Assembly: GCF_046119375.1 (NCBI RefSeq)
Contig: NW_027362764.1
Span: forward strand, 452,538,001 to 452,602,000
Direction of reading: 5' to 3'
Length of the DNA stretch: 64,000 bases
Source: Phyllobates terribilis
Taxonomy: Eukaryota
Shown: piece after piece, positions 6,378 to 54,294 of the stretch
Layout: each line of letters opens with the position of its first letter
Position numbering within the stretch: the first letter of the stretch is position 1
Position numbers and translations under genes: made by a program
The notes under the pieces: generated by a model
What the model was told of the DNA's origin: nothing
Databases searched by the model: none
Seen by the model: only the letters and a program-made list of their open reading frames with translations

Positions 6378-6608
6378 GGATTAGGGTTAGGGTTGGGTTA
6401 GGGTTAGGATTAGGGTTAGGATTAGGGATGGGTTAGGGTTAGGGTTGTGTTGAGGTTAGGGTTGTGTTAGGGCTAGGGTTGTGTTATTGTTGTGCTAGGG
6501 TTAGGATTAGGGTTACGGTTAGGATTAAGGTTAGAGCTGTATGAGAGTTAGGGTTGTATTAGAATTGGGGTTAGGGTTGTGTAAGGGTTAGGGTAGTGTT
6601 GGGGTTGT
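6378..6608 (+). repeat. Degenerate interstitial telomere-like (TTAGGG)n tract
   Basis: Many GGTTAG/TTAGGG units with GGTTGT and GGATTA variants. Confidence 0.85.
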
Positions 6609-17461: not shown

Positions 17462-20400
17462 AACAACTGTTAAGAGGAGACTTTGTGCAGCAGGCCTTCA
17501 TGGTAAAATAGCTGCTAGGAAACCACTGCTAAGGACAGGCAACAAGCAAAAGAGAATTGTTTGGGCTAAAGAACACAAGCAATGGACATTAGAGCAGTGG
17601 AAATCTGTGCTTTGGTCTGATGAGTCCAAATTTGAGATCTTTGGTTCCAACCACCGTGTCTTTGTGCAATGCAGAAAAGGTGAACGGATGGACTCTACAT
17701 GCCTGGTTCCCACCGTGAAGCATGGAGGAGGAGGTGTGATGGTGTGGGGGTGCTTTTCTGGTGACACTGTTGGGGATTTATTCAAAATTGAAGGCATACT
17801 GAACCAGCATGGGTACCACAGCATCTTGCAGCGGCATGTTATTCCATCCGGTTTGCGTTTCGTTGGACCATCATTTATTTTTCAACAGGACAATGACCCC
17901 AAACACACCTCCAGGCTGTGTAAGGGCTATTTGACCAAGACGGAGAGTGATGGGCTGCTACGCCAGATGACCTGGCCTCCACAGTCACCAGACCTGAACC
18001 CAATCGAGATGGTTTGGGGTGAGCTGGACCGCAGAGTGACGGCAAAAGTGCCAACAAGTGCTAAGCATCTCTGGGAACTCCTTCAAGATTGTTGGAACAC
18101 CCTTTCCGGTGACTATTTCTTGAAGCTCATCAAGAGAATGCCAAGAGTGTGCAAAGCAGTCATCAAAGCAAAAGGTGGCTACTTTGAAGAACCTAGAATA
18201 TAAGACATATATCCAGTTGTTTCACACTTTTTTGTTAAGTATATAATTCCACATGTGTTAATTCATAGTTTTTATGCCTTCAGTGTGAATGTACAATTTT
18301 CATAGTCATGAAAATACAGAAAAATCTTTAAATGAGAAGGTGTGTCCAAACTTTTGGTCTGTACTGTATGTATCGTCCTCCAAAACTTTGAGGACTCCAC
18401 CAAGATGGAGAGCGGCAATGAGGTAATAATTAGCATCACCATCCCACTTCTCTGTCTTCTGAAATGCTCTCTGCTCACAATCAAAGAGGATGCATTGCAG
18501 GCGGAGCACCATGAGATTGAGCAACGAACCATACAGGGTGATTACACACAGCCCTGCCTCATCTCATCCCATCGTGGATTGGGTGACAATGAGGAAGAGG
18601 AGGAGGAGGAAGAACAGGAGCTATAGACGGTACTACCTGCACAACTGTCATACCGTTTGTTCAGTGTGGATGGCCTAAGTACAGGGAGGAGGAGGAGAGC
18701 ATGGTCCGTCATCCTCTTGATGAGGACACGGAAGTCTTGCCTGTTAGTTGCCTGAGTTTATGTTGCGCTGCCTTTCCCATGACCCTCGCGTTCTCCAAAT
18801 TTTGGGTGACAGTCATTACTGGTTGGTGACACTTCTAGACCCACGCTACAAGGAGAACTTTATATCTCTTATTCCTGAGGCGGACAGGTCTACAAAATGG
18901 GTCAGTACCAGAAGGCCCTTGTTGTGGAACTATTAAAAAGATTCCCATCTGAAAATGCTGGCGGTAGTGGTCACAGTTCGTTGGACAACCAAGGAGTACA
19001 GCTGAGAGAGACACAACTTCAATCCAGCAGAGGCAGAGGAACACTGTCAAAGTTCTGGGAGAATTTTCTCAGCCCCTCCAATCACTCAGGCCCTGAGGTA
19101 CCTTGCCGACTGTACCAACATCCTCCGTGATTCCTCTGTGCCTTATAATTATTGGGTATCTAAGTTGGATACATGGAATGAACTGGCTCTCTACACCTTG
19201 GAGGTCCTGGCCTGCCCTGCCACTAGCTTTTTATCAGAGCGGGTTCTTAGTGCCGCTGGTGGAATTATTACTCATAAGCGCATAACTGAAAATGCTTACA
19301 GTCTGACTCTTATAAAATTGAACAAGGGCTGGATTGGGCCAGACTTCTCAACACCACCAAATGATAGCAGCGTAACATAAACTCAAATCCAGTTTCTTTT
19401 TTTGGAAGGTGTATTCCCATGCACCTCTTCACACCCACACATGGGTATACGTTTCCTGATTTTGGCTATTTACTCTTGTCCTCCTCCTTCTCCTCATCCT
19501 CATCCTCCACCACCATATCACCAGGGTGACCTTGGTCCATGACCCACATAATTTTTTTTAAAGGATGTTTATGATGCCCGTAAAAACATTTTTTATGCAG
19601 TATGTTCATGTATACCCCCCAGGGGTAAATGTTTGTCAGTCCATACACTTAGTGCATGCGCATTACAAGTATAGGAGACCCGTTCCTTTATAATGCGAAA
19701 ACATTTTATGAGGCCCTCCTCCACGTCTCTTCCAAGGGGCATTGGAGTGCCTCCCAATTTTTGGCAGCCCTTGCATTCACTGCACAGGCCAACACTATGG
19801 GAGACCCACTTCCTAATGATGGGAGCATTTTTTTTTCAGGAGGCCCTCCTCTACGTCTACGTCTCTTCCAAGGGGCATTGGAGTGCCTCTCAGTCATCAA
19901 CCGATACCGAGACCTCAGATAGTGAACATAGAACAAGAAACTTCAGAGGGAGAAATATAAAAAGAGGGAGAGGAAGGGATCAATTTAGGGGACAAAATAA
20001 ATTCCAAACAAATGAGAGTGGTCTTTTTTTAGAAACAAATTAACCACTGTAAAGTCAGATGGATCCTCTGAGAAATATGAAATAGAGGGACAAGTTATCA
20101 ATCTATCATCCCATAACCTAATGGAGATTGAGCTCTCTCTGTGTTAAAAGGTCTGTCATTTGTCCCTTCGTCAGATTTTGATCTTCTTGACACTGTCAAA
20201 GATCTTAATCTATTTGCACACAAATATAAGTGGAGGAAGCTTTTTCTGAGACAAGATAACATGCTGAGTAAGGAATTGGGTGTTCCAACAGATATGATAA
20301 CTGAAATAGACTTCTAGAAAGCCCAGCTTTAGGAGGCCCCAAACGATGGGGAATGGACAGGTCTCAAGAGAAAAAGCACAAAAATGCCACCCCCACAAAA

Positions 20401-21480: not shown

Positions 21481-23326
21481 GGTGTTTCAGGTGGTCCTCA
21501 TACGTCTTGGAATATACGATGACATCGTCCAGGTACAACAGGACCGTCTCGAAGTTTCTGTGGCCCAGACAACACTCCATTAATCGTTGGAAGGTTCCTG
21601 GTGCGTTTCAGAGTCCGAACGGCATGCAGGTGAACTCGCTAAGTCCCATCGGGGTGGTGAATGCGGTCTTCTCCCGGTCCGCCTCTGCTACAGGAACCTG
21701 CCAGTACCCGCTAGTGAGATCCAAGGTAGAGAAGAAGTTAGCAGATCTTAAAGCAGCCAATGACTCCTCTATCCTTGGTAAGGGGTACGCATCCTTGTGT
21801 GTGATACGGTTGATTTTCCGGTAATCTACACACATCCTCATGGTGTTGTCTTTTTTTTTGACTAAGACTAGTGGAGCTGCCCAGGGGCTACAGCTATCCC
21901 TAATCACCCCAGCCTCCTTCATGTCTCTAAGCATCCCCTTGGCGTGTTGGTAGTGGGCAGGGGGTACGGGTCGATACCTCTCTTTTATAGGAGGATGGTC
22001 TCCCGTGGGGATGTGGTGTTCTACCCCCTTGACTCGCCCGAAGTCTAACGGGTGTTTACTGAACACTCTCTCGTACTCTTGAACCACCCGATAGACTCCT
22101 TGTTTCTGGTGTGCGGGAGTGGAGTCAGTACCCAGATGTAGTTGCTGACACCAGTCCTCCATGTTTTTCTTAGAGCCGTTACCTTCCTCCGGGTGAGATG
22201 GAGGCAAGGGTTCCACAGATTGTATAGAATTTTGGTTAATGGTATATAATTTGGCTAGCGTGGCATACCGGGGCAGGTACACTTCCCTCTCCCCGATATT
22301 TATTATGCGAACGGGCACCCTCCCATGGCGTACATCAACCACCCCCCGTGCTGTCAAAATGGTGGGCCTACTGTCCGAGTAAACTGGTTCTACCATTGCC
22401 TGGTAATCCCTACCTCTCATGGCAATAGGAAAAGGGTCACACATTCTTACGCTACCAATCTCACCGCCGGAGAGTTCCACCTGTTGCCGTCGCATCAGTG
22501 CCCGGATCTCTTTCTGGAGCACCCGCTGCTCGCCGGAGCTGGCGTTCTTGGCAACCTGCTGTAAAAGGAAAATCACCTCTGCAAGACAATTTTCAATTAC
22601 ATTAGTTCCTAGAGTTATTTTTGGGTGACTCTCATGTTTGTCAATATCTACAATGATCAGTCCCTGTGCTGCCAGTTCGACTCTACCGATTTTGATGGTC
22701 ACCTCTTTAAATCCGATCTGTGGCACGGGCTGGCCATTGCTGGCGATGATACTCAAGTCGTCGTCAGGGTAGCGGGTAATATCCGAGTCATTCCAGTACT
22801 GCTTAAAGAGCACGTACGGGATGGTGGTGACCTGTGACCCGGTGTCCAGTAGGGCACTCATGGGAATGCCATCCAGTACCACAGGCAAGACTGGACGTCC
22901 TCCCAGATATCTGTCGCGCCAGTTCGATGGGCCTGGTGATCTTTTTCCTGGGGGTTGGCCCTCTACCCCAGGTTGTGCCCGTTTAAAGAACAGTACCTTG
23001 CCATATGTCCGGGTTGATTGCAGCGGCGGCAGATGGGTAGTCCGTCCTCGCTGTATCGGTCACTGGGTCTTCCTCTGGCCGGTGGGGTCCTCCTTGGTCG
23101 ACGCCACGGGATGTCCTCCGGTCCGGATGCCAGCTGGATCTTCCCTGGGGTGGAAGCCTGTAAAGACTGCACAGTTCGGGTTAGCGCAGCAACGCTCTTA
23201 GCTAGCTCTTGGACCTAATGGTGTAGGTCTGGAGCCGGGTCATTGTCCAAAGCCTGCGCATCAGCTCCCACAGGCCCTGCCGACAAAGGCGCCGCCTCCT
23301 GGTGGTAAGTGATAGCAGGGCGCCTG
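21481..23326 (-). mobile_element. Gypsy/Ty3 internal fragment without LTRs (gag zinc knuckle, protease, N-terminal RT)
   Basis: CRRCNQPGHMARYC; ALLDTGSQVT; SPWAAPLVLVKKKD..RMCVDYRK; LDLTSGYWQV; LYLDDVIVY. Confidence 0.95.
21608..22888 (-). pseudogene. Gypsy pol fragment (aspartic protease plus RT N-terminal part), 426 aa open
   Basis: Supplied ORF with DTGS and RT motifs; a frameshift follows PFGL. Confidence 0.9.
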
Positions 23327-25758: not shown

Positions 25759-28265
25759 CTAGAAATTGAGCCTGTTCTACACCCGGGTGGCGAGCATTTT
25801 TATTGGTATATGGTCTCCCATGCTGGTGTATGCTGCCCTCATCCTGGTATGTGTGCTGCCCCCATCCTGGTATTTGTGCTGTCCCCATCCTGGTATTTGT
25901 GCTCCCCAATACTGTTCCCCCATCCTGTTATGTGCTGCCCTCATCCCTATCCTGGTATGCATGGAACGCCTCATCACTATCCTAGTATGCATGGCACCAC
26001 TCACCCCCAATCCTGGTATGCATGACACCCCTCACCCTTTATCCTGGTACGTATGGCACCCCTCATACTCAATCCTAGTATGCATGGCACCCCTCACCCC
26101 CAATCCTGGTATGCATGGCACCCCTCACCCTCAAACCTGGTATGCATGGTACCCTTCATGCCTATCCTGGCATACATGGTACCCCTCATCCCTATCCTGG
26201 TATGCATGGCCCCCCAGATCTCTATCCTGGTATGCATGGTACCCCTCATCCCCCAATCCTGATATGCATGGTACCCCTCACTCCTGGTATGCATGGAACC
26301 CATCGCCCCTCAATCCTGGTATGTATGGCACCCCTCATCCCCAATCCTGGTATGAATGATATCCCACCATCCCCAATTCTGGTATTCGTGGTACCCTCAC
26401 CCCCAATCCTGGTATGTATGGTCCCCTCACCCCCAATACTGGTATGCATGGTCCCCTCATCCCCACTCCTGGTATGCATGGCACCCCTCATCCCCCAATC
26501 CTGGTATGTGTGGTCCCCTCACCCCTAATCCTGGAATTCATGGCCCCCCTCATCACCTATTCCTTGTATGTATGGTACCCCTCATCCCCCAATACTGGTA
26601 TGTATGGTACCCCTCATCCCCCAATCCTGGTATACGTGGCCACCTCATCCCTCAATCCTGGTAAGTATGGTTCCCTCACCCCCAATCCTGGTATGCATGG
26701 TCCCCTCATCTCCACTCCTGGTATGTATAGTACCCCTCATCCCCAATCCTGGTATATGTGGCCACCTCATCCCTCAATCCTGGTATGCATGGTCCCATCA
26801 CCCCCAATCCTGGTATGCATGGTCCCCTCACCCCAAATCCTGGTATGTATGGTACCCCTCATCCCCCAATCCTGGTATGTATGGTACCCCTCATCCCCCA
26901 ATCCTGTTATGCATGGTTCCCTCATCCCCCAATCCTGGTATGCATGGTCCTCTAACCCCCAATCCTGGTATACATGGTCCCCTCATAACCCCAATCCTGG
27001 TATACATGTTCCCCTCATCCCCCCAATCCTGGTATGTGTGGCTCCCTCATCCCTCAGTCCTGGTATGTATGGTACCCCTCATCCCCCAATCTTGGTATGT
27101 GTGGCTCCCAAATCCCCCAATCCTGGTTTGTCTGGCCCCCTAATCCTGGTATGCGTGGTACACCTCATCCCCAAATCCTGGTATGCATAGTACCCTCACC
27201 CCCAATCCTGGTATGCATGGTCCTCTCACCCCCAATCCTGGTATGCATGGTCCCCTCATCCCCACTCCTGGTATGCATGGCACCCCTCATCCCCCAATTC
27301 TGGTATGTGTGGTCCCCTCACCCCCAATCCTGGTATGCATGGCCCCCCTCATCCCCCAATCCTTGTATGCATGGTACCTCTCATCCCCCAATACTGGTAT
27401 GTATGGTACCCCTCATCCCCCAATACTGGTATACGAGGTCACCTCATCCCTCAATCCTGATATGCTTGGTCCCCTCACCCCCAAGTATGCATGGTCTCCT
27501 CACCCCCAATCCTGGTATGTATGTTACCCCTCATCCCCCAATTCTGGTATGTATGTTACCCCTCATCCCCCAATCCTGGTATGCATGGTCCCCTCACCCT
27601 CAATCCTGGTATACATGGTCCCCTCATCCCCCCAATCCTGGTATGTGTGGCTCCCTCATCCCTCAGTCCTGGTATGTATGGTACCCCTCATCCCCCAATC
27701 TTGGCATGTGTGGCTCCCAAATCCCCCAATCATGGTGTGTCTGGCCCCCTCATCCCCCAATCCTGATATGTGTGGCACCCCTCATCCCTTTCACGCTGCA
27801 CACATACAAAAAAAATAAACACTTATACTCACCTTTCTTCCCTGTGCTCCAGCGCTGCTGTTTCCTGTTCTACCAGAGGCCAGGGGAGGAGTGCGGTGCC
27901 GGAGCACCGCGCTGTCCAGCACCATTTTGCTGATGACACACTGTAAATGTGTCTTCAGTAAAATGGTGCCGGATAGCGCTATGCGCATGCGCTGATTCCG
28001 ACGCCTTCACTCAGCCCCCGGTCTCTGGCCAGAAGAGAGGCACCGCAGCAACGCTCTTCCCGGTCAAGTAAATATGTAAGTATGGCGCCAGAGATCGCGG
28101 TATGCATTCAGTGTCTACGCATACCGCGATTTCCAGCGCCATACACTCATCTTACCTGTAACGGCTCCATGCGCTCTTCTGTCTGGAGCCAGACTGCGCG
28201 TCGCGCATGAGCAGTCTATAGAGGCTTCAGACGCAGGGACGCTTGGCCGATTATATTATGCATAC
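25759..28265 (-). mobile_element. Non-autonomous Helitron-like element carrying the 32-bp minisatellite
   Basis: Minus-strand 3' end ...CACCCGGGTG...TTT-CTAG followed by T, homologous to 3360-3509; hairpin-rich 5' region at 27820-28250; the 5' TC terminus is degenerate. Confidence 0.65.
25830..27790 (-). repeat. Reverse-complement array of the same ~31-33 bp minisatellite
   Basis: CATCCCCCAATCCTGGTATGCATGGTACCCCT units. Confidence 0.97.
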
Positions 28266-28285
28266 ATATATATACAGTGTATATA

Positions 28286-29933
28286 CAGTTAGGTCCATAT
28301 ATATTTAGACAGAGGCAACATTTTTCTAATTTTGGTTCTAGACATTACCACAATGAATTTTAAACAAAACAATTCAGATGCTGTTGAAGTTCAGACTTTC
28401 AGCTTTCATTTGAGGGTATCCACATTAAAATTGGATGAAGGGTTTAGGAGTTTCAGCTCCTTAACATGTGCCACCCTGTTTTTAAAGGGACCAAAAGTTA
28501 TTGGACAGATTAAATAATTGTAAATAAAATGTTCATTTCTAGTACTTGGTTGAAAACCCATTGTTGGCAATGACTGACTGAAGTCTTGAACTCATGGACA
28601 TCACCAGACACTGAGCTTCCTCCTTTTTTATGCTCTGCCAGGCATGCACTGCGGTGGTTTTCAGTTGCTGCTTGTTTGTGGGCCTTTCTGTCTGAAGTTT
28701 AGTCTTTAACAAGTGAAATGCATGCTCAATTGGGTTGAGATCAGGTGACTGACTTGGTCATTCAAGAATATTCCACTTCTTTGCTTTAATAAACTCCTGG
28801 GTGGCTTTGGCTTTATGTTTTGGGGCATTGTCCATCTGTAGTATGAAACGACGACCAATCAGTTTAGCTGCATTTGGCTGGATCTGAGCACACAGTATGG
28901 CTCTGAATACATCAGAATTAATTCGGCTGCTTCTGTCCTGTGTCACATCATCAATTAACACTAGTGACCCAGTGCCACTGGCAGCCATGCATGCCCAAGA
29001 CATCACACTGCCTCCGCCGTGTTTTACAGATGATGTGGTATGCTTTGGATCATGAGCTGTACCACACCTTCGCCATACTTTTCTCTTTCCATCATTCTGG
29101 TAGAGGTTGATCTTAGTTTCATCTGACCAAAGAATGTTCTTCCTGTACAGTGCTGGCTTTTTTAGATGTTTTTTAGCAAAGTCCAGTCTAGCCTTTTTTT
29201 TCTTGATGCTTATAAGTGGCTTGCACCATGCAGTGAACCCTCTGTATTTACTTTTATGCAATCTTCTCTTTATGGTAGATTTGGATATTGATACGCCTAC
29301 CTCCTGGAGAGTGTTGTTCACTTTGTTGGCTGTTGTGAAGGGGTTTCTCTTCACCATGGAGATTATTCTGCGATCATCCACCACTGTTGTCTTCTGTGGG
29401 CACCCAGGTCTTTTTGCATTGATGAGTTCACCAGTGCTTTCTTTCTTTCTCAGGATGAACCAAACTGTAGATTTTGCCACTCCTAATATTGTAGCAATTT
29501 CTCGGATGGGTTTTTTCTGTTTTTGCAGCTTAAGGATGGCTTGTTTCACCGGCATGGAGAGCTCCTTTGACCACATGTTTACTTCACAGCAAAACCTTCC
29601 AAATGCAAGATCCACATCTCAAATCAACTCCAGGTCTTTTATCTGCTTAATTGAGAATGATATAACGAAGGGATTGCCGACACCTGTCCATGAAATAGCC
29701 TTGGAGTCAATTGTTCAATTACTTTTGGTCCCTTTAAAAACAGGGTGGCACATGTTAAGGAGCTGAAACTCCTAAACCCTTCATCCAGTTTTAATGTGGA
29801 TACCCTCAAATAAAAGCTGAAAGTCTGAACTTCAACTGCATCTGAATTGTTTTGCTTAAAATTCATTGTGGTAATGTCTAGAACCAAACTTAGAAAAATG
29901 TTGTCTCTGTCCAAATATATATGGACCTAACTG
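28286..29933 (-). mobile_element. Tc1 family B, full length (1648 bp)
   Basis: ~220-bp TIRs CAGTTAGGTCC...GGACCTAACTG with TA on both flanks. Confidence 0.96.
28539..29576 (-). pseudogene. Tc1 transposase (345 codons) with one visible nonsense change (TGG to TGA at 28758)
   Basis: MWSKELS...WSDETK...LQMDNAPKH...ILE*PSQSPDLNPIEH...STKY*. Confidence 0.9.
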
Positions 29934-30021: not shown

Positions 30022-31740
30022 CGGTCTTTGTGCGCTTTAATAAAAATTGCCCATCTTAAATTTTGTAGATATAAATGATTTGAGCAAATGTTCAATTTTT
30101 TTCAACAAGAGGACAGTTTAAATTTGCGCTATTGGTAGTGAGAAGAGTGAAAGCAGGAGAGGTTTTTGTTAAAAAGAAAAACTTTTATTGATACAGACAA
30201 GTGGAGTACTTACAATATTATTTTGGGAGTAGTCTAAACAGTGATATATAGTGATATCACGGGATTGGATACATAGATAACATTAGATAAAATTAAGTTT
30301 TAAAATTGGTAGATAAATAAATAGATAAATAAATATGTGCTTTCTAGTTCCCCAGGGTCTTGGAGTACTAGATTGGAGTTGATGGTTTGGGGGACAGAGG
30401 TTCGTATACCTAGTAGGAGAAATGTGGGGTGTATTAGTTTGATATTTCGACAGCCAATGGAGTATTAGTTCGTTTTAGTTTGGTACATATTTTTATATTT
30501 TTACCTGCTGTGCTTGGTTGGTAGGTCCTTGCAGTAGGTAGGGTGATTTGTTGGCGGTGAGCTGTGGTGGTACCTGTGGTGGAGGACGTGAGGTACCTAG
30601 GGTAGAGAACAAAATTGCTGGAATCGTGGGGGTAGGTGTTCAGTGGTCAGTGGTTGACCTAACTGTGAGTGAGTTGTGAATTACCTGCTATTGGTATGGC
30701 AATCAGCAGGCTGTATGGGCGGTTGTACGGCTGTCTTTCTTGGACTATGGTCCTGTTGTGTTGGGTTCTTCCAGAGGTTTGTCTAGGAGAGACGAATGGG
30801 ATAATACCCAATTAGTAGGGACAATGAAAGATACTGGGTTACCTGGTGGGTGGGCTATAAGGGGTACCAGAGAGAGTCCAGTGATGGTGTAGAGGTAGGG
30901 TCCGTTGAGGTTGATTGGGATCAGGTTGTCCTCGTTATGTGGATACAGCAGGGGGCTCTGGCTGCTTTTTCGGAGTAGGTCTAGAGGAGAAAATAGGGTA
31001 ATAACTGATTAGGTCCTATGATAAAGTACACAGTCTATTTAGTGAGGTGCCTTGAATTACCTGTTAGGTTGGTTACAGGGGGTGTCCAGAGATATCTCAG
31101 GGTAGATATGGGATACTGGTAATGGTCACCATTGGGTGGATGCAGCAGGAGGCTCTGGCTATATCAGTGGTGGCCAGAGGTGGCCAGCCTTCTGTTGGCG
31201 AGAGTTGTTAATTATAAACAAGGTTATGGGCTGGGATACAGACAGGGTGGTCAGTAGTATTTGGTTACTTTGTCCGTACCTGTCTTGGTATAGAGTTTAG
31301 GGTAGGGAAAAGGTTCTGGAGGTCGTCACCGTATTGGTGGGGTGGGTGCAGCAGGAGGCTCAGGCTGAGAAGTCAGTGTCTGGTTGTCGGATCCAGCGGT
31401 AGCTAGTGGCTGGAGCTGCAGGATCAGATTGTGGAATCTGGCTGCAGGTACCGCGGGGAATAGTAAAGAGTGTGGTCCGCAGAATCTTTAGTGGTTCCGG
31501 TGGGGCCTTGGCCCAATCCTACTTACAGTCCGTAGTCCAGCGATGGCGTCGAGAGATGGCAGGGGCCCGGAGTGAGAGCGGAGTCCCAGCCGGTGACTGC
31601 CGCGAGCTTACGTACTTCCGGGTAGAGGGAGGGAGAGAGAGGGGAAGACGCGCTTCTCGTGGAAAGCGCACGAGAGGAGCAGCGTGGCATGCACTAGGTA
31701 CGTAGGCCTGTTGGCGCCTCCTCTGCTGGGTTTAGGAGCA

Positions 31741-31782
31741 ATCCAACGCATTTCTACAGTTGCGGCTGTCTTCATCAGAGAT
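31741..31782 (-). ncRNA. Type I hammerhead ribozyme motif downstream of the GIY-YIG stop
   Basis: Minus strand reads ATCT-CTGATGA-A-GACAG ccgcaa CTGTA-GAAA-TGCGTT-GGAT; stem I ATCT/GGAT; one C to T change in stem III. Confidence 0.75.
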
Positions 31783-31844
31783 GGTCTGACCCAGTCTGGT
31801 GGTGTCCTTATATACCTGGGGGTAGTGGTGTCATTGATTGCTTG

Positions 31845-32414
31845 TCAGTCATTAAACACAAATAGTTCTTTTTCACTATTCAGTCCCCGCGGTCTTAAGG
31901 TGTTTAGTTTAAAGATCCATTCACTCTCTTTCCTTGACATGCTTTTAATAAAATCTCCTTGTCTCCAGTGTTTGTGGACTATTTGTATGCCTACTACTTG
32001 GATTCCTTTTGTAGACCCGTTATGTTTCTCCATAAAATGTTTAGAGAGAGGATGGCCCGTGTATTTGTTTTTAATATTCCGCAGGTGTTCGTTGATCCTA
32101 ATGTTAATAGGTCTTTTTGTTCTACCTACATACAGTTTCTCACACGGGCATAATAGCCCGTAGATGACCCCTGTGGTATTGCAAGTTATAAAGTCTGTGA
32201 TGGGGTATATTTCTTTCTGGTTGCTGACTGTGTGTTGTTTTAGTGTATTTAATGTTTTACACATCTTACATTTTTTGCATGGGAAGAAGCCTTTTAGTTT
32301 TTGTTGGAATGGGGTCTGTGGTTGCTTTTGGATAGTATTATTTCTCACGGTGGGCGCTATAATCGACCCTAGGTTACGTGCCTTTTTAAATATAAACTTA
32401 GGTAAGTTTGGCAC
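31845..32414 (-). pseudogene. Penelope GIY-YIG endonuclease domain
   Basis: CKKCKMC; TCNTTGVIYGLLCPCEKLYVGRTKR...RINEH; RKESEWIFKLNTLRPRGLN. Confidence 0.92.
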
Positions 32415-32582
32415 CTGGTCCCCAATTATCTTGTCATCTTTTAATATGTGCCAATGTTTTTCTATGATTTTTCTAAAGATGTGAGTGTTGGCAGAATAGG
32501 GTGTGATAATAGGGATAGTGGTATTGAGCCTAGGGTCATTTTGTTCTTGTTTAGTTGCGTTTACCTCAGTTAGGAGGTTGTG

Positions 32583-33185
32583 TCATGGTATTTTGGCTAT
32601 TTTTTCTTTTGTGTTTCTGAGGAATTGTGCAATATATCCCTTTTCCAAGAATTTATTTGTGAGTAGTTTTGCTTCCATATTGAATTCTTGGGGTTTAGAG
32701 CAGTTTCTGTGTAGTCGCAGGTATTGGCTGCGGGGGACGTTGAGTAACCAGTTGGGGAGGTGGCAACTATCTATTGGAATGTAGCCATTAGCGTCACTTG
32801 GTTTATGATACATGCGGGTCCGGATGCAGTTGTCCTCAATGTAAATGTTGAGGTCTAAAAAGTTAACTGTAGTGGTGCTGGTGGTAGATGTAAATTCCAA
32901 GAAAAAATCGTTCTTATTAATTTCCTCTATGAATGAGTTTAGTGATGATTGGTCACCTGACCAAATGAATAGGATATCATCAATGAATCTTCGCCATAGG
33001 ACCAGGTTCGTATGTGGGAGGCCTCCGGGGTGTATGGCTAAAGATTCCCATCGGCCCATGTAGAGATTTGCATAACTGGGTGTGAACCTGGTCCCCATGG
33101 CGGTGCCCAACTGCTGGGAGTAGTAGTCCCCCTCGTATAGGAAATAATTGTGCGTCAGTATAAATAACATGCAGTCCGTAATGAA
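32583..33185 (-). pseudogene. Penelope RT, C-terminal half
   Basis: GTAMGTRFTPSYANLYMG; WRRFIDDILFIW; FLDL. The N-terminal part of the supplied ORF is hAT sequence. Confidence 0.92.
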
Positions 33186-33689
33186 TAGTGTTGAGCCACC
33201 CCCGTAGTGTTCGAGTTCGGTTCGTTGAACACCCATGTGTTCGCCGAACTGTTCGTCGAACTGTTCGTCGAACACCTTCGAACACCGTTAAAACCAATGG
33301 CAGGCAAACAAAAACACATAGAAACACATAGAAAACACCTTCAAAGGTGTCCAAAAGCTGACAAACTGCTCAGAAGACACAACTAACACATGGAAAAGTG
33401 ACAAGTACATATAGTCATGCGAAAAGAAAAGAGGTGGAGGAGTAAAAGGAGGGGGAGACACAGATATAGGCATGTCATGCCCTTCTAAAATCCAAAAAGT
33501 GAGAAGCCGACACGGCCAGTCCGTTCCTGCCTGTGCCACCTCTGTGTCGCCGGGTTTGTGCCAGAGCCGCGGTGGACCCTGACGGCCAGCACCCCTATCC
33601 CAATACTGGTGCCTGTCCGCCGGTGGGTCGAGGCCCCCCACGGTGGGGGGGAGTAACATCTGCAGAAGAAAGACCATCTTCCAGCCAAA

Positions 33690-36600
33690 CTAAGATGTCG
33701 ACTTCTTTTCGTGGACAATGTGATACGATCCCATTCTTACGGACACGCCCATCGCTACAAATTCTAGTTGAGGCACAAAAACAGCAGGTGCTTCAACGGA
33801 TATCAAGTGCTCCTTCAAGTGGGCTCTCCATCACCTCAATTTCAACATCACAAATACTCCAGTCCTCAGAGGTGTCACTCCAATCGCACTTGCTTCCTCA
33901 CAGCTCCCAAGTCTCCAGCTGCCCGTCTGAGTATGGGGTAACACAGATGGCTGAGTCTGCCCAGCTGTTTACTCATACTATAGCCTGGGAAACGGAGGTC
34001 TGCTCCAGAGCTTCTGTTAATCCAGATGAGGAAATGATCTGATCCGATGCCCAGAATCTTTATAAGTTGGATCCAGGACCAGATGAAGAAGGTTCTGAGC
34101 ATAATGTAGACCCTTGTTCCCAAACTGTAACTCCTGTTGGTGGAGACAATGATGAAGACGATGATGAGACTCAAATGCCTGATTGGAGCGACAACTTGAC
34201 TTTTCGGTCAGGGCAGGAAGAGGTTGGCTCTGAGGGCGACGGGTGTGATAACACACAGGGTGATGATGACGAGGTTGGAGATCCCACTTACTGTCAACCC
34301 ACAGTCAGACAGTCGATGAGGTCAGCAGAGGAGGTGGAGGAGGATGTGACTAGCCCTGGGGATGGGGATGACTCGGTACCCGGGCATTTGCCTGGCCTTG
34401 GGGATGTCACGGTGGTCGGCTCCCTGGCCCGTACCCTGGGGTCTCTCTTTAAAAGGGTGGATAATTGTTAATTTTATAAGAGTTCATGACGCCACCTGTG
34501 GTATCTGGTGACAAGCACCAGCGCTGCAGCAGTCCACTGAGGCCGGTGATAAGGCAGCTCAATGGTATAGCTCCCCACAGGTGGAGCTAGGTCTCAGGGC
34601 AGCGTATGCAGGGGGAATGCAGGACAGGCGAGACCCAGCTGGGTCAGAGCAAGAACGGGAATGGACACGGTAGTCACTTCAGTACCTTTTACTGGTGGAA
34701 ATTCAGGCACATCCCGGAGCACTGTAGGGTGAAGGGTGCATATCATTATCCTCCCCAATGAGCGGGTGTAGGGCCTCCTGTTTCTTGCCTCTGCGTAGTA
34801 AGTTTCTGACCTGCCTGGAGCTAGGCCTAACTTTGTCTCTGTCCTGCGCTGGCTGACCTTGTGGTAGGGCCTTCTCTTGGAGTTCACGCTCCCAGTAGGC
34901 GGGGCCTAAGCATCTCCTGGCTCTGTTACATATCAGCACCTTAGCGATCCTGGGACTTGTAGTTCTCCAGTGATTCCGGTTATGCCTTACTGGGTCATAG
35001 AGATACCGGTAAGCTCGGATCCTGTGTCCGGTAAATGCTTCGGGGTGAGCTGGTTAAGCTCCTCTGCCCCTTATGTACTAACTCGCCACTCGCCTTCGGC
35101 CTACTCGGGCCCTCACTAGGCTATTCACACTAACGGCAGCTTGCCGCGCTTCACTGATCTTACGGCACCGGCACACCTTAAGCTCTATCTGGGCTCCCTT
35201 AATCTAGCAAGCAGGAGCCTCGTGCTCCACTGCTGAACTATTAACTGCGTTCTCTAGACTAGACTGAGCTCCACTGCAGACTGACCTCTCTTAGGCTTCT
35301 CTACTGCAGGAACTCTTCAGAGGAACTGAACTGCCTAGCTCCACCTTCCCTATTTATATCCCTAACGGGCTCCCTCTGCTGGTCTGAGGTGGAAGGTGGA
35401 GATGTGTGAATGTTTATGGGGGCCTCTTGTGGAGGATTCCATCAATGCACTCTTGTAGGATCTGTGATACCAAGCGCAGCGGGGCATCACAGATGCTATT
35501 AACGACGAGGTTAGGTTGCGCCTTCCTCAACAGAGACGGAGTACTGGAAGCACGTCAACAACTGCATCCTCAACCACAACTCTGCCTCTGACCACAAGTC
35601 GTAGTGGCTCTTCAGGTCACATGGGCTCTAAGCCTTGCATAGCCTGGGCATTTATTCAGATCGATAAGGATGACCCAACTCATGTTATCTGTAATATTTG
35701 TCAGCAAAAGCTAAGTTGAGGCCAAAAAATACATAGTTTGAGTACTTCATGCATGTACCGTCACATGGATATGAAGCATAAGTTGCAGTGGGAAGCTCAC
35801 TGTGCTACAATGCGGCCTAGCCGGCTGGGCCAACCACCGTCTGCCCCATCTTGTGCATCCGCAGCCTCTTCATCCTCTGTGACTGGGGGGACAGCAGTCA
35901 CACATGTTTTTGGACGCAGACCTGCCACCTGTTTACCCGCAACAGCCAGTGTGATTGGCAGGTCGTCAGTTCATTGGGAAGTGAAAAAACCTGCTAGTGT
36001 TGAGCGCTCTCCGACATCGAGAGCACCACCTTTGGATCAAGGCAACCTAACATGTCCGCCTGCATCTTCCTCACAGACCGGCAGTTGCCGGGGACACCCT
36101 ACTCAACACCGTCTAAGCACAACAGCCAGCCCTCGGTCCCTCAGATGTGGAAAAGTAAAAGACCATTTCCTCCTTGCCATGAGAAAGCTAAGAGGTTGAA
36201 TTTCACCATCTGCAAGCTGTTGGCTACAGAAATGCTGCCTTTCCACCTGGAGGACACAGAGGATTTTCAAGACCTTATGTCCGTCACAGTGCCCCAGTAC
36301 CAGATGCCCAGTCGGCACTACTTCTCAAAGAAAGGTGTGCCTGCGCTCCACTAGCATGTCGCACACAACATCACCGCTTCTTTGAGAAACTCTGTGTGTG
36401 ACAGGGTGCACTTCACCACAGACACTTGGACGAGAAGGCATGGACAGGGGCGTTACATGTCGCTGACTGGGCACTGGGTAACTATGGTGACAGCAGGACA
36501 AGGGGCTGCTGTCCAAGTCTTACCGTCCCCACGAGTTGTGTGTTAATCCTCTTTATCTCGAACTTCCTCCACTGCTTCTGCCTCCTCAACCTCCTCTCGG

Positions 36601-38398
36601 TCCTCCACCTGCACCCAAAGCCTGTCTGGTAATGCCACCTGCTTTCTAACTGCGCAGAAGGAATCCTGCACACCTCCTTACTTTGCTGGCAGCAGGGCTC
36701 AAAGCATCAGTGTTTACTTTGAAATGTCTGGGAAATGTGAGTCACACAGCTGAGGAGTTTTGGTCAGCTCTGGAGACCCAGTTTCATGAAAGGTTGTCTC
36801 CACTGGACCTGCAACCAGGGAAGGCCATGTGCGACAATGCTGCAAACCTGGGTGCGGCACTTCGCTGGGGCAATGTCACACACGTGCCTTGTATGGCTCA
36901 CGTGTTGAACCTGGTTGTCCAGCAATTTTTAGCCCACTATCCCGGACTAGATGGCCTTCTGCAGAGTGCACGGTCGCTGTGTGCTCACTTCCGCCGTTCG
37001 CATCCCGCAGTTCAACGACTTACATCTCTACAGAAGTCGTTGGGCCTGCCAGTTCACCGGCTGAAATGCGATGTGCCGACACGGTGGAATTCAACTCTGC
37101 ACATGTTGCAGCGACTGTGGCAGCACCGACAAGCCCTGGTGCAATGCGTTCTGACGTATAGCCTGGGCCAACGAGATCCAGAGGTGGGGCAAATCACGCT
37201 GGAGGAGTGGTCTCAGATCAGGGACCTATGCACCCTTCTGCACAGTCTTGAAATGGCGACGAAGATGTTTAGTGCTGACGATGCCATTATCAGCATGACT
37301 ATTATGGTGATTTACATGCTGGAGCACATGTTAAACAGAATTCGGAGTCAGGTGGTGGGACAAGAGGAGGTGGAGGAAGTAGAGGAGGAGTCGTATGCGG
37401 AAGGGATAACATCTCCAAGGTCCAGACGGTTGGCAGCACCAAGGCGGCAGGCATGGGAGGGTGGGGGAGAGGGATTAACCAGGGCGCATGGTAGCAGCCA
37501 AACTGTTGAGGAAGGTGCAGGAGCCGAGGAAGAAGTGGAGGACGAACTGGCAATGGGCATGGAAGACTCATCAGATGAGGGAGACCTTGATCACATTTCT
37601 GTTGTGCGAGGTTGGAGGGAGAGGGCAGAGGAAGGAAGCATGATTCTTACCTCGCTACCAACACAACAAGGACTTGGTCCTTCTGGATGCGCAAGACACA
37701 TGAGTGCCTTCTTGCTGCACTACCTGCAACATGACCCCCGGATTGTCAGAATTCGAAGTAATCCCGACTACTGGGTTGCCACACTCTTAGATCCCCGGTA
37801 CAAAAGTATATTTGCCGAAATAATTCCTGCCATAAAAAGGTATTGACGAATGCAGGAGTATCTGTTGCAGAATCTTACATGTGCTTTTCCACAAAACACC
37901 AGTGGTGCACGTAGTGAATCTCACAGTTCTAACTTGCCAACGGTGGGACTGTCGAGTCTTCATCACTCAAACAGTAACAGTAACACAGTATCTGCTGGTA
38001 ACAGCAATTTTGTGGAATCGTTTCACCACTTTTTTAGACCATCCTTTGCAAGGCCACAGGAGACAAGAAGTCTGACACATAGTCAATGCCTAGAGAGGAT
38101 GGTACAGGAGAATCTCCAAGTGAACATCGAAGCCATGACTGTGTCACTGGACCCTTGCTCATTTTGGTATTCCAATCTTGAAAAATCGCCGGAGCTCGCC
38201 ACTCACGCCTTGGAGATCTTGTCATGACATGCAGCCAGCGTTCTCTCTGAACGTGTGTTCAGCGCTGCTGGTGGTTTGCTGACAGATAAGCGCACGCGGC
38301 TGTCCACTGAGAATGTAGACAGACTCACGTTCATAAAGATGATCAAATCATGGATTCGCAAGGACATTTCTACCCCTGTGTCATCCTTGGGAGACTAA
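33690..38398 (+). pseudogene. hAT transposase pseudogene
   Basis: BED finger AWAF...VICNICQQKLS; FTTDTWT; CDNAAN; CMAHVLNL; CDVPTRWNST; SERVFSAAG...TDKRTRLS. Has stops, frameshifts and an LTR insertion; the start position is approximate. Confidence 0.92.
34347..35491 (-). mobile_element. Solo LTR (probably Gypsy-type) inside the hAT transposase
   Basis: TG...CA termini with an inverted TGTGA motif; GATG duplicated (34343-46 and 35492-95); removal restores EED-AINDEVRLRLPQ. Confidence 0.75.
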
Positions 38399-39257
38399 AA
38401 GCTTGGGGATTTGGTAAAATCACCTCACCAACCGTTTTAGGCAACAGTGGAGCAATTGATGCCAATTAACGCTAGAACGCATGACCATAAAAATCTACAC
38501 TTTCACATACCTGGGGCCCTTTAGGCCCGTGTGCAAATAACATGTAAAAACTCAAACTCAAATGACAAACAACTATATACATGAAGAATACCTAGAGTTT
38601 CAAAATTCTAACTAAAGCAATCTTGCAGAAAATAGAAAACAATTAACTGGGTGGGCCTGCAAGGCCACAGGTATGCGTTCTAGGGTTAAGTGGTGTCTGT
38701 GCCACAATTTTGGGAGTCCCCTTGCTGTGTCTTACGTGACGTTGGCATCGTCAATTCCAGGTGGGTTGGGTCGCACCCCCCCCTTTTAACTGTAAGAAAC
38801 TACATACACTATGGCTTGGGGTAACACAGATGGTTGAGTCTGAAGAGCTGTTTACTCAGAGGTCTGCTCCAAATCTTCAGTGTCTGCTAGTCAGCGTAGA
38901 ATTTTTAACTGCATCTAGCCTAGGCAATACTTTGGGCGTAGTAGCCCAGCTGCGAAGCAAGCTGCACCGCCTGTGTATCTAATAAGAATTTTTAAATTAA
39001 TCTAGCCTAGGCAGACTGTGGGGACCCCCAACCAAACCCAGATGCTCAGTCCCCCTACCGCCCCCCTTTCATGGACAACCCAATAATGTAACTCTTACAA
39101 CTGGATGGGTGAGGATCGGTCACAGCTTTATTAACTCTTTATACTCATTCCATTAGAAAGGCATTTTATTTCTAAAATAATTCAGCTTGTTGCAGCATTC
39201 CCTGGGTCCCCACTCCGGCAAGTTGGCCAACAAGTGTAACTCTCCAACATGTCCTTT

Positions 39258-39886
39258 CTATTTCCAGGCCACGGAGGATCCAGTGTACTCGTATGCAGGA
39301 CTCTGACCCCCACCCATCACTCTTAACGCTTGTTCCACTCCGTCCTGGAGTCCTGACAGGAATATGTCCAGTCCAATATCTATTAAGTGAACACCGTCGG
39401 GCCGTATGAGGCCTGCTTTATCTCCTTCCAGTTGTCGGTGTCGTATCACTACACCGCCTCTGTCTCTTCTAAATTTTTCCATCCGAATATTTATTACCCG
39501 CCTTGTCCATTCGATGGCCGTGATGTCTCGCGCACCTTGCCATACCGCTATCGGCACAATCTCTGACCATACTATAGCTAATTTTGTGAAAAATTCTCTG
39601 AAGCGCTCAGTGTCTAGTTTCATTATTGCCATTAGTTATGCGCTCTTGTGATGACCTAGGTTGTTTCCCCCGGCCTGTATAACTAAGATGACCGGACCTC
39701 TTGCCTCTCTCCCTACCTTGATTACCTCCATTAGTACCTGTGGCCATAGCAGGCCTCTAATACCTCTCCAGTTGAAATATGTGTTATGAAACTCTAATTT
39801 CCTCCCACCTGGGCGGACTTTCGCCCTTTTTTGTGCCCAATATATATACGAGTGGCCTATCACTCACACTGTTGGCTTAGCGTCAC
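39258..39886 (-). pseudogene. SGNH/GDSL hydrolase domain of the Ngaro-like element
   Basis: VIGHSYIYWA (block I), QAGGN (block III), PDGVHL (block V); internal stops. Confidence 0.85.
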
Positions 39887-39904
39887 CTGTAAAAGAAACA
39901 AACC

Positions 39905-40795
39905 ACGTTAGGATAACAAGTCCGGTCTTATGTATCTCGCCAAACACGTGGATCGCCATCTCCCTATCCTCTGAACTTCCGTTTCTGACAGTCCTGCTCT
40001 TGCTGCTTCCGTGGCCGCACCTATGCGGAATGAGTGTGTCCCGTAATCTTTGGGGTGGTTCCCTGCCGATGTTATGCATTTATTATATATAGCTTGGAAC
40101 AGGTATCTTGATAATGGCGTTCCATCAATGTGTGATACGAAGAAATTACTTTGTGATCTGATGGTTAGATATGTTTTTACTATTGTTACCCGACTCAGTG
40201 TACCGTTTGTGGGTTGTAGAAGTACCCAAGTACCCCTGCCCGCTGGAACCGTTTTCGATTGGTGTATGCGTACACGTATTGCATTATTGGCTATGACTAC
40301 TTACTGGTGTAATAAGCGTCCACTGGTGGTAATTTTGGATTGAGGGACTAATTCGCTTATACATAGCGCCCCGAAGAAGGCGATCACAAATGCAGTAGAC
40401 ATTAGTGTTGCTTCAAATTGTGAGTGTCATGTTAATGGTGTTAGGGATAAGATATGAGAAATCAGTTTTAGTGACACGGGACGGGACGTCTACATTCCTG
40501 ACTTGGCTGACCCCTTTTCCACCCTTTTATGGATTGTCTGATGATGAATCTTTGTCACATCTCCCCAATTCAGTAGTTGGAAGTGAAATGCTACTCCGGT
40601 CAGACACCGCTGCGCTGACGCCCCTGATATGCCCCTCATCATTAGCTGGTGGAGAAATTCTATGGTGAATTGTGATCTGGCTTGTTCACATTGGTCAACC
40701 CGTCTGCCTGCTACTAGTCGTGTCCACTCTTCCCATGCCTTACCGTATGCTTGCCACGTTGACGGGGCAACTGACGCTCTGATTAATGGCATCAA
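39905..40795 (-). pseudogene. Tyrosine recombinase of the Ngaro-like element
   Basis: RASVAPSTWQAYGKAW; HSFRIGAA; GRWRS...Y; frameshifted. Confidence 0.87.
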
Positions 40796-41124
40796 CTATT
40801 CGCCACTAGATCCCATAGGGAGGGTGGGCAACTGTTGCCAGATGGGTGGGCGTTGTGGAAGAGCTCTGTGAAAATCTGCCAATTGAATTGTTATAAAGCG
40901 TTAGCGGGCAGCTTTATACCCCTCAGCATAGTGGCTAGCGCGGACCCATACATTGTGTTTTAGGCACAGGAATACTAGCCTGCGTAGTAGGCCTAGCACT
41001 GGGAGAGACGATGATGCCATCTTATTAATGCAGTGCGCTAGGCTGGTGTTTTGTGTTATGAAGCGTATATTTTTGTTAGCCAGGCGCGCGTCCCATATTT
41101 CTATTGCTACCACTATTGGGAAAA

Positions 41125-43170
41125 ATTATTTTCAGGGCTAGATGCAGCTAAAAATTATTATTAATTTCAAAGCTGGTGGAGCTTGGCATAGATGGCCTAA
41201 TACAATGAGTCCCACACACTGCTAGAAGCCCAAATATTTTTTCAGAGGTAGATGCAGATAAAAATTATTTTTAATTTGCAACCTGATGGAGGTCAGTATA
41301 GATGGACTAATAGAGAAAGTCCCACACACTGCTAGAAGGCCAAATATTTTTTCAGAGCTAGATGCAGATAAAAATTATTTTTCATTTGCAACCTGATGGA
41401 GGTCAGTATAGATGGACTAATACAACAAGTCCCACACACAGCTAGAAGGCCAATATTTTTTCAGAGCTAGATGCAGACAAAAAATTATTTTGAATTTGCA
41501 ACCTGATGGAGGTCAGTATAGATGGACTAATAGAGAAAGTCCCACACACTGCTAGAAGGCCCAATATTTTTTCAGGGGTAGATGCAGAAAAAAATATATT
41601 CAGTTTGCAATCTGATGGAGGTCAGTATAGATGGACTAATACAACAAGTCCCACACACAGCTAGAAGCCCAATATTTTTTCACAGGTAGATGCAGAAAAA
41701 AATATATTCAGTTTGCAACCTGATGGAGGTCTGTATAGATGGATTAATAGAACAAGTCCCACACACAGCTAGAAGCCCAATATTTTTTCAGAGGTAGATG
41801 CAGAAAAAAATATATTCAGTTTGCAACCTGATGGAGGTCTGTATAGATGGATTAATAGAACAAGTCCCACACACAGCTAGAAGCCCAATATTTTTTCAGT
41901 TGTAGGTGCAGAATAAAATATATTCAGTTTGCAACCTGATGGAGGTCTGTATAGATGGATTAATAGAACAAGTCCCACACACAGCTAGAAGCCCAATATT
42001 TTTTCAGAGGTAGATGCAGAAAAAAATATATTCAGTTTGCAACCTGATGGAGGTCAGTATAGATGGACTAATACAACAAGTCCCACACACAGCTAGAAGC
42101 CCAATATTTTTTCAGAGCTAGATGCAGACAAAAAATTATATTCAATTTGCAACCTGATGGAGGTCAGTATAGATGGACTAATAGAGAAAGTTCCACACAC
42201 TGCTAGAAGGCCACATATTTTTTCAGAGGTAGATGCAGAAAAAAATATATTCAGTTTGCAACCTGATGGAGGTCTGTATAGATGGATTAATAGAACAAGT
42301 CCCACACACAGCTAGAAGCCCAATATTTTTTCAGAGGTAGATGCAGAAAAAAATATATTCAGTTTGCAACCTGATGGAGGTCAGTATAGATGGACTAATA
42401 CAACAAGTCCCACACACAGCTAGAAGCCCAATCTTTTTTCAGAGGTAGATGCAGAAAAAAATATATTCAGTTTGCAACCTGATGGAGGTCTGTATAGATG
42501 GATTAATAGAACAAGTCCCACACACAGCTAGAAGCCCAAATATTTTTTCAGAGGTAGATGCAGATAAAAATTATTTTTAATTTGCAACCTGATGGAGGTC
42601 AGTATAGATGGACTAATAGAGAAAGTCCCACACACTGCTAGAAGGCCAAATATTTTTTCAGAGCTAGATGCAGATAAAAATTATATTCAATTTGCAACCT
42701 GATGGAGGTCAGTATAGATGGACTAATAGAACAAGTCCCACACACAGCTAGAAGCCCAAATATTTTTTCAGAGGTACTGTAGATGCAGATAAAAATTATT
42801 TTTAATTTGCAACCTGATGGAGGTCAGTATAGATGGACTAATACAAGTCCCACACACAGCTAGAAGCCTAATATTTTTTCAGAGGTAGATGCAGAAAAAA
42901 ATATATTCAGTTTGCAACCTGATGGAGGTCTGTATAGATGGATTAGTAGAACAAGTCCCACACACAGCTAAAAGCCCAATATTTTTTCAGAGGTAGATGC
43001 AGAAAAAAATATATTCAGTTTGCAACCTGATGGAGGTCAGTATAGATGGACTAATACAACAAGTCCCACACACAGCTAGAAGCCCAATATTTTTTCAGAG
43101 CTAGATGCAGAAAAAAATTATATTCAATTTGCAACCTGATGGAGGTCAGTATAGATGGACTAATAGAATG
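41125..43170 (-). repeat. 110/111-bp satellite array, about 18 monomers, inside hAT copy 1
   Basis: Tandem GCTAGATGCAG...TTGCAACCTGATGGAGGTCAGTATAGATGGACTAATAG...CCCACACAC units; reverse complement of the array at 57350 onward. Confidence 0.97.
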
Positions 43171-44093
43171 ATGCTATGCCCAAAAGATTTTACTTCACTA
43201 GGTGCAGTAAAAAAATTCGTATTCTATACACAGTTGGTATATCTTGCAACACAGATAGGCTACTCCACTGACTAACACACTCTGCAATAGGCCAAAAAGG
43301 ATTAGCTTTGCTAGATTCAGCCAAATGCTGTGAAAAAAACTTGCACAGCACTGGCACAGACCTGCCTGGAAAAAACTGATAGGAACTGATGTAACCTAGT
43401 CCTGAAAAGGACTCCAATTACAATTAGTCTTTACTCCCACAACCTATCTATTTAAGAGCACAGACCTGCCTGATAAAAGTCATAGGAAATGCTGTAACCT
43501 AGTCCTTAAAAGGACTGCAATCACAACTATTCCCTACTCCCAAGCTATCTGTAGATTTGTGCGAAAATTGGCTTGAAATTAACAAGGTATAGTGCACACA
43601 GCAACAGCGGTGCCGTTTAACACGCAGCTGCAGCAGTGAGAAAATGGTGGCGACGGGGAAAATGGCTTGGTCTTATAGTGCAAGGACATGTGACATACAC
43701 TGCCAATGACACATGCCCTTGCTTGTGTGAAAAAAAGCACTTCGCTCCGTGTGTGCGCTGCTGATAGGCTGACAGATTGCACCTCCCCACTGTAAATGCG
43801 GGAAAGAGAAAAAAAAAATGGAGATCTTCATTGTTCCTGCAGAGATTCATCCCCTGCCCCTCCCCCCACCCCGCTGTACACTCAAACTGCGTATTAACAT
43901 TAATTTTCATCATTACTGAGAAAAAATCCAGTTATGATTTTGGTGCACGAACCGTTATCGAACATAACCTCGAACAGCCGAATTTTTCTCAAATTGTTCG
44001 TGTTCGCCGAACGGCTCGAACACCGCCCAAAACAGCTCGAATTTGAGATTGGCGAACAGTTCGAGTAGAACAACGCTCATCTCTAGTAATGAA

Positions 44094-54285: not shown

Positions 54286-54294
54286 GAAAATAAT

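Follow-up and report, generated by a model that had tools for sequence, protein, structure and literature searches.

The window analysed here, a stretch of 64,000 nucleotides from the 10.6-Gb genome of Phyllobates terribilis, contains a Penelope-like insertion on its minus strand, and it is the 3′ terminal repeat (pLTR) of this one insertion that concerns us (Table 1). A 14-bp target-site duplication (30107-30120 and 46384-46397) encloses an inverted 5′ piece, an ORF split by a nested transposon, and the 3′ pLTR, parts that are contiguous in relatives. A single ORF joining a reverse transcriptase (RT) to a C-terminal GIY-YIG endonuclease, partial-tandem pLTRs, the inverted 5′ piece, a tail at one end and the target-site duplication mark it as an EN+ Penelope-like element. 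The motifs DKG and IDD can be read in the translated ORF of the window, and the ORF of the element is rich in A (37-40%). A Pfam search of the window ORF pieces gave no RT match and placed the GIY-YIG match (E 0.00029, 21.5 bits) under the cut-off of 22.6; relatives of the ORF of sister copy L106 carry PF00078, and the protein relatives of the element are mostly amphibian. The linker before the endonuclease (ORF 31845-32582) reads CKKCKMC. Linkers of the form CX2-5CxxC are common to Nematis too according to passages of PMC8557442, and a provisional “Neptune-type” label rests on this linker and on a listing in which the vertebrate clades are Neptune and Poseidon.

The start-codon region of the 5′ ORF part (44086-45945) has been replaced by the inversion, and its frame is broken. 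The nested transposon, which we take to be a hAT-like element from its 8-bp duplication and the look of an ORF at 36650-37846, is 10.9 kb long and carries a 108-bp tandem array; a Pfam search on it returned no match. With its ORF split, an in-frame stop, a broken frame and a changed intron A acceptor, the window copy is dead. The letters of the hammerhead-like core occur in 12 of 14 pLTR units. Rfam searches gave no hammerhead match for the window at the gathering score or for L082 and L095 by E-value, and single-strand folding of the region was no better than that of shuffles. As a separate observation, a 2.5-kb contig of a distant family (run X2, described below) crosses the core (window 31567-31864); uncleaved hammerhead-containing RNA may be common.

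The window contains other repeats too. Arrays of 108-110 bp units in both orientations lie at 41129-43168 (in the hAT-like element), 53774-54298 and 57357-64000, related minisatellites of 30-32 bp stand in opposite orientations at 1-3353 and 25938-27788, and a degenerate interstitial TTAGGG tract of ~39 units occupies 6381-6606. Frames at 17463-18203, 28758-29618, 47500-48324 and 49687-50736, which from their translations we assume to be Tc1-like transposases, include one that stays open for 349 codons, and the piece at 21608-23059 is, from its translation, presumably LTR-retrotransposon pol.

Table 1. Features of the Penelope-like insertion and its 3′ pLTR in the window
Feature	Position	Strand	Remarks
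Entire Penelope-like insertion, made up of an inverted 5′ piece, an ORF interrupted by a nested transposon and a 3′ pLTR	30121-46383	-	parts contiguous in relatives
Start of conserved predicted pseudoknotted region (AATAAA to ORF start)	30121-30140	-	insertion ends in it
AATAAA, predicted poly(A) signal	30184-30189	-	X1 and X3 contigs stop 19 nt past it on L015
Intron F, 95 nt	30504-30410	-	spliced in X2, X3 on sister copy; kept in intron-less insertion
Intron E, 88 nt	30684-30597	-	spliced in X2, X3 on sister copy; kept in intron-less insertion
Intron D, 85 nt	30867-30783	-	intron-less copies; RNA contigs
Exon repeat, three copies ~200 nt apart	30944-31366	-	at 31366, 31160, 30963
Intron C, 80 nt	31060-30981	-	intron-less copies; contigs X2, X3 on sister copy
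Intron B, 88 nt	31279-31192	-	removed so in intron-less copies
Intron A, 76 nt	31526-31451	-	donor ACT/GTAAGT; absent exactly in 3/3 pLTRs of intron-less insertion
CpG-rich promoter-like stretch and predicted short first exon	31527-31700	-	ETS-like CCGGAAG at 31621
Minimal hammerhead-like core CTGATGA ... GAAA	31738-31785	-	sequence reading; mismatches in window copy
3′ ORF part: RT motifs, CX2CxxC linker, GIY-YIG endonuclease	31845-33185	-	in-frame stop near 32585
Nested hAT-like DNA transposon splitting RT	33186-44085		8-bp duplication, imperfect terminal repeats
5′ ORF part: N-terminal region, DKG motif, start of RT	44086-45945	-	
Inverted copy of pLTR 3′ end	45945-46383	+	ends ~178 nt past AATAAA

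The intron array

Five intron-like segments of 49, 80, 60, 88 and 95 nt had been read in the pLTR in a preliminary description, and their coordinates, lengths and GT..AG ends were borne out. The segment of 49 nt, offered as a possible intron, does mark a real one with its donor at 31279, but the intron-less copies give a true length of 88 nt (intron B). For intron D the acceptor and the intron itself stood, but not the donor at 30842 (60 nt), as the donor in use in the intron-less copies and in RNA contigs lies 25 nt upstream at 30867. The second donor, 30842, is conserved, the far lineage included, and its use was not observed in the intron-less copies or the contigs. Intron A had gone unnoticed and is the sixth; its donor is matched in 14 of 14 pLTR units, and its acceptor, GG in the window copy, is AG in all 15 other aligned copies spanning it. 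Candidate branch-like motifs are present on the minus strand at 31013, 30817, 30652 and 30470/30439, as had been described, and that of intron D varies between lineages; the repeat shared by the exons was likewise found.

A simple donor-plus-acceptor scan of the window pLTR gave five sense pairs and no antisense pair, a count reached by none of 200 dinucleotide shuffles (mean 0.5); the pair near 30210 is probably a false one, and A and B escaped the scan. The same scan of 14 pLTR units from the subfamily of the window copy and from sister subfamilies, which are related and hence not 14 independent tests, found 3-7 sense pairs versus 0-2 antisense, with no shuffle reaching the count of the unit in 12 of them (1/200 and 3/200 in the other two). 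That the introns are real and spliceosomal, as first proposed, is almost certain. The evidence consists of exact gaps at A-D in a genomic copy and C-F junctions in transcript contigs, so that removal is documented in an intron-less insertion and a sister copy and not in the window copy.

A genome search in which the best 40 of 794 candidates were scored found copies that match in abutting pieces. The intron-less locus is a composite insertion (G000:C3:322.35-322.39 Mb; 322349400-322386800; L061-L065) made of an inverted unit and a partial tandem, ~2.7 units in all, broken by later inserts and with a possible worn target duplication. Each of its three pLTRs lacks exactly introns A-D and retains E and F; each of the 12 gaps can be shifted to GT..AG ends, and its 24 flanking letters contain 0-3 mismatches. 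These pLTRs are 96-97% alike. In a tree built from 13 of the 21 aligned sequences, without the truncated and far copies, they group together (support 88) and nest among intron-bearing copies, so their state is intron loss, not gain. Three identical splice patterns fit either one RNA copied repeatedly, through a circle or template jumps, or an intron-less parent. The exact junction A pattern has one joined and 15 intron-bearing genomic matches, that of junction F no joined genomic match, and a search with the joined form found no second intron-less locus among the best 40 of 890 candidates; the intron-less evidence is that of a single insertion event. The hAT-like family that splits the window ORF also interrupts this insertion, two times.

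A look-up of sequencing runs listed no RNA run with the window stretch, a blank that has no bearing on its transcription. Three runs (X1-X3), chosen by species label, come from one study and are, at a guess, probably RNA; they were used as contigs only. The contigs were aligned to the window at 80% and to sister copy L015 at 92%. L015, a 5′-truncated pLTR behind Tc1-like sequence, has 82% likeness to the window copy. On it introns C (81 nt), D (85 nt), E and F (86 nt) are skipped by a single contig in each of X2 and X3, always with GT..AG ends but for the X2 form of E. The skip at E is 93 nt and GT..AG in X3, and 88 nt with a shifted acceptor and non-GT..AG ends in X2; the latter form fits copy L011, in which a changed base makes an AG five letters earlier. 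Intron F has its donor 4 nt upstream in the L015 lineage, where the 86-nt skip is GT..AG, and one X1 contig keeps this intron. Because junction C of L015 has no joined and ten intron-bearing matches in genome DNA, the contigs are very likely spliced RNA. A search for RNA joining the predicted exons had been suggested as a check, and it succeeded for C-F on L015 (X2, X3) but not for A and B, which no contig in X1-X3 covers at useful likeness. Other joints in the contigs, for example 31158-31344 and 30965-31345, were rejected, as they join repeat copies or come from distant families.

Beyond their stop 19 nt past AATAAA, the X1 and X3 contigs have 20 and 28 unaligned letters, and these stops hint at polyadenylation. 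The fully spliced contig appears to stop at this poly(A) site, before the ORF. As the predicted structure that follows AATAAA is missing in L015, use of the signal there may not hold for intact elements. L015 (L015:1000-2480) is an example of ten segmentally duplicated truncated pLTRs (L011-L020) behind the start of a Tc1-like transposase gene, copies that are transcribed and spliced as chimeric, apparently non-coding RNA.

It had also been pointed out that two acceptors are followed at once by GTA (TAG/GTA). The window copy has this at E and F, but some lineages have lost the GT. Recursive splice sites were rejected on this ground and because base +3 after these acceptors is often C or T across lineages; no joint from either site was found in the RNA contigs, the copy that gives the RNA being without that GT. 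The introns kept in the intron-less insertion, E and F, are the two whose acceptor is followed by GTA (window 30596 and 30409), and in a lineage without GT after these acceptors both are spliced, one case each. A GTA after the acceptor may mark slow splicing.

The splice dinucleotides are better conserved than the intron interiors, a comparison that had likewise been suggested. Of the 66 intron slots in the 12 closer copies, all have an intact GT and 64 an intact AG, and between lineages both dinucleotides are 100% alike versus 84-93% for the interiors. In the far lineage, where interiors are ~60% alike, both ends of A, E, F and the short D are kept and C is absent; the B donor and the upstream D donor are not truly conserved, and the GT/AG counts for B, C and the upstream D are unreliable there, since they rest on gap placement.

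Tandem duplication of exon-intron units, proposed from the exon repeat, holds as well. Window exons 2-4 are alike (z 7.5-10.3), and in L109 one pair of adjacent exon-intron units aligns over its whole length (z 57; intron interiors z 16). The interiors of the window introns have no significant likeness (best 3/200 shuffles among 15 pairs), and the evidence for duplication is therefore that of exons 2-4 and L109. Introns have also been lost. The young subfamily L113, with at least 40 matches at 90-100% and near-identical copies, is without exactly one L109 intron, in exact register (5250-5480), which is probably a second precise intron loss, fixed in a successful lineage. Precise loss occurs in 0 of 146 slots of 25 young L113-type pLTRs. 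Other copies have lost whole units through deletions of 185 nt, 132 nt and ~1 kb, and lineages C11 and L106 have lost F or several units by deletion; given these losses and that in L113, intron number is not fixed. Every pLTR unit examined retains at least 2-3 introns. Deletions whose ends are not at splice sites were rejected as splicing events, namely two large ones in L150 and, in the C11 and C2:487.9 Mb copies, one of 132 nt around F. When 22 units were compared pairwise for further GT..AG gaps, two pairs stood out, L109/L113 and that of the window with L106b, the latter a distant pair whose gap is probably an alignment artefact.

A probable leader and the copy ends

The promoter-like stretch holds 14-27 CpG per 200 nt versus 2-5 in the array, and in 11 of 14 units the ETS-like motif precedes the first donor by 92-96 nt; from these letters we infer promoter activity. 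Between the ETS-like motif and the last acceptor, nine units contain 27 ATG versus 113 expected, a pooled observed/expected ratio of 0.24 compared with 0.80-1.20 in 16 control strands, and ATG is the most depleted of the 64 triplets in seven of the nine. The introns share in this (8 versus 26.6 expected; 16 versus 67.3 in the non-intron rest), in a split for which the intron lists are incomplete for five of eight units. In the joined exons of six units the longest ATG-started frame has 0-65 codons. In tandem copies the pLTR passes through AATAAA and ~230 nt of conserved sequence into the start codon. The preliminary description had left the choice between leader and trailer undecided, and both the shortage of ATG and the continuation to the ORF start favour the leader. 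With ATG the most depleted triplet, introns included, the array is likely a scanned 5′ leader, and the ATG-poor introns suggest that intron-retaining RNA is translated too.

Copy ends, set by alignment to an accuracy of ~10 nt, fall into two clusters past AATAAA. Within 200 nt of it there are 37 distinct ends, 20 of them at +68 to +102 and 13 at +158 to +198; the remaining four, at +41 to +43, are one duplicated event, and 11 further copies continue into the ORF. In the young subfamily 20 of 24 ends are clustered (9 at +74 to +83, 11 at +172 to +184), the other four being at +26, +20, -24 and -140, and one more copy runs on. The end at +20, that of the young copy L148, is close to where the RNA contigs stop but carries no A run. 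Each of the four inverted pairs with both ends clustered has one end from each cluster.

The region between AATAAA and the ORF start is predicted to fold into six helices with one pseudoknot, and both clusters would lie in unpaired AC-rich loops of this structure. Across 13 sequences 96.7% of cells pair and 3 of 38 pairs change on both sides, the structure having been derived from those same sequences. It is present at full length in L081:1490-1730 and relatives; the window has pieces of it at 30121-30140 and, within the inverted copy, at 46251-46383, where the first two thirds are found. Rfam gave no match for this region of L082 and L095. On this model the pseudoknotted region could be an RT-binding element or a ribosome entry site. 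In Poseidon PAc of the green anole, as described in passages of PMC11167929, two internal RT start sites with AC-rich structure give an optional “tail”, and these two sites parallel the two end clusters here. They differ in lying inside the ORF (one at 111-118 nt) and in giving a tail of 30-40 bp, whereas the clusters described here are upstream of the ATG, ~100 nt apart, in loops of the predicted pseudoknot.

Splicing state and the template for copying

The reading we favour, and consider somewhat more probable than not, is that the six-intron pLTR, multiplied by unit duplication, is a long 5′ leader, and that a mostly unspliced read-through sense RNA serves as both message and template. Transcription would start at the CpG/ETS stretch just past the hammerhead. 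Fully spliced RNA would tend to be cut at AATAAA and would then be without the ORF and the structured RT-start region; only RNA passing AATAAA could be translated and copied, and it would be mostly unspliced or would keep its last introns. Splicing of last introns is generally linked to 3′-end cleavage. Such coupling of last-intron removal to cleavage would enrich read-through RNA for introns, and the two end clusters would be two internal RT start sites, one for each target strand. Copying of only the read-through, mostly unspliced RNA would explain why copies keep introns that splice well. Nearly all templates had all their introns, and the sole spliced one retained the last two; the template must extend past the poly(A) site. 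The cleavage-gating steps (the cut at AATAAA and the copying of read-through RNA only) draw on one contig and one insertion, with no contig joining splicing state to ORF read-through.

The intron-less insertion is of ordinary architecture, with its ends at the two usual positions (+80 and +183), which means that a sense RNA was accepted by the ordinary pathway. The existence of a partly spliced genomic copy argues for a sense template, and indicates that sense RNA, usually unspliced, is what is copied back into DNA. The choice between antisense and unspliced sense template is left open in the passages of PMC3846280, where an antisense template is proposed. Self-priming on an antisense transcript would account for the retention of all introns in nearly all copies and would make the intron-less insertion a rare exception. 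We consider this quite improbable, given the ordinary architecture and ends of that insertion, the second precise loss to which L113 against L109 points, and the use of sense RNA as template by the anole element in vitro (PMC11167929).

A different separation of roles had been suggested in the preliminary description, between a spliced mRNA and an unspliced template, and has been argued for the fly Penelope (PMC2377424, in part). Spliced read-through RNA would then be the mRNA, splicing aiding export and translation, nuclear unspliced RNA would be the template, and intron-less copies, being poorly expressed, would leave no progeny. The part concerning the template fares well in that nearly every template was unspliced; the exception, spliced at A-D, is a partly spliced RNA that was copied. 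For the message, the exons are ATG-poor (16 versus 67.3), tandem copies have pLTR and ORF joined, none of the scored matches is a sister of the intron-less insertion, and deletion of the Penelope intron abolished reporter protein with RNA not lowered (PMC2377424, in part); against this, the introns are nearly as ATG-poor as the exons and the fully spliced contig stops 19 nt past AATAAA, before the ORF. A spliced mRNA that passes AATAAA is possible, and this separation as a whole appears rather unlikely. Doubtful to about the same degree is a reading that accepts the introns as real and concerns their function, in which only the first intron matters; slippage between exon repeats would have produced the others as by-products, and these would be tolerated and spliced owing to their intron-like look. 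The variable number of predicted introns (3-7), the gain and loss of whole units, and the first donor being the one site present in all 14 units agree with it, but D, E and F keep their donors and acceptors across lineages with intron interiors only ~60% alike, and no unit examined has fewer than two to three introns. That the joined exons encode a small protein seems barely credible: a proline-rich motif recurs in translation and the joined exons of the window have a stop-free frame of 171 codons, but across the three intron-less pLTRs the motif falls in different frames with stops, and ATG is depleted, with no ATG-started frame above 65 codons. A coding role for the exons was rejected on these grounds.

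To return to the favoured reading of a long leader on a mostly unspliced template, its furthest extension is a vertebrate retrotransposon family that has evolved a multi-intron leader, gene-like and expandable, and with it controls its own replication: complete splicing would lead to cleavage at the poly(A) site before the RT-start pseudoknot, so that only intron-retaining RNA is copied. We put this forward tentatively and regard it as on balance doubtful; if true, it would explain intron retention in Penelope-like elements. By analogy with the HUSH-type silencing of intronless DNA in human cells (passages of PMC8770142), the retained introns may also disguise the A-rich ORF from such silencing.

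Relation to known elements

Retention of introns by Penelope-like elements, and single 5′-UTR introns, are already known from passages of PMC2377424, PMC8557442 and PMC4209133. Penelope of Drosophila virilis (PMC2377424) likewise has an internal pLTR promoter with a short spliceosomal intron just behind it, spliced and unspliced RNA both occur, and the intron is retained in genomic copies, as here. There the intron is single and 75 bp long, whereas unit duplication has given the window copy six, and sister units a predicted 3-7; the 3′ end of the fly intron abuts the hammerhead (PMC4209133, in part), whereas the introns here lie at least 250 nt behind the hammerhead-like core, and an AATAAA stands between leader and ORF. 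Chlamys-3_cRei is alike in its pLTR start site and 5′-UTR intron and differs in having a single intron, 398 bp long (751 bp in another isoform), an N-terminal endonuclease and no canonical hammerhead, as far as passages of PMC8557442 describe it; its authors suggest that other Penelope-like elements may have introns upstream of the ORF. Neptune-clade elements share the C-terminal GIY-YIG domain, the CX2-5CxxC linker, a minimal hammerhead in the pLTR, and tandem and inverted insertions, but the text passages of PMC8557442 describe no multi-intron leader. A literature search over parts of the published texts found no multi-intron pLTR and no intron-less copy of a Penelope-like element.

How retroelements retain introns through an RNA stage has been an open question since 2003. 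The present family, compared throughout within one genome, gives six markers of splicing state per repeat and a natural, partly spliced insertion, together with a mapped poly(A) candidate, two likely RT start sites and a young subfamily. It is also a case of introns increasing in number within a mobile element as exon-intron units duplicate, and other transcripts can pick up ready-made exons and a poly(A) site from such repeats. Elsewhere in the genome a junction of a Penelope-like element recurs every ~155-160 kb over G000:C11:399.3-401.3 Mb (L091, L096-L104), a spacing that points to a large tandem segmental array.
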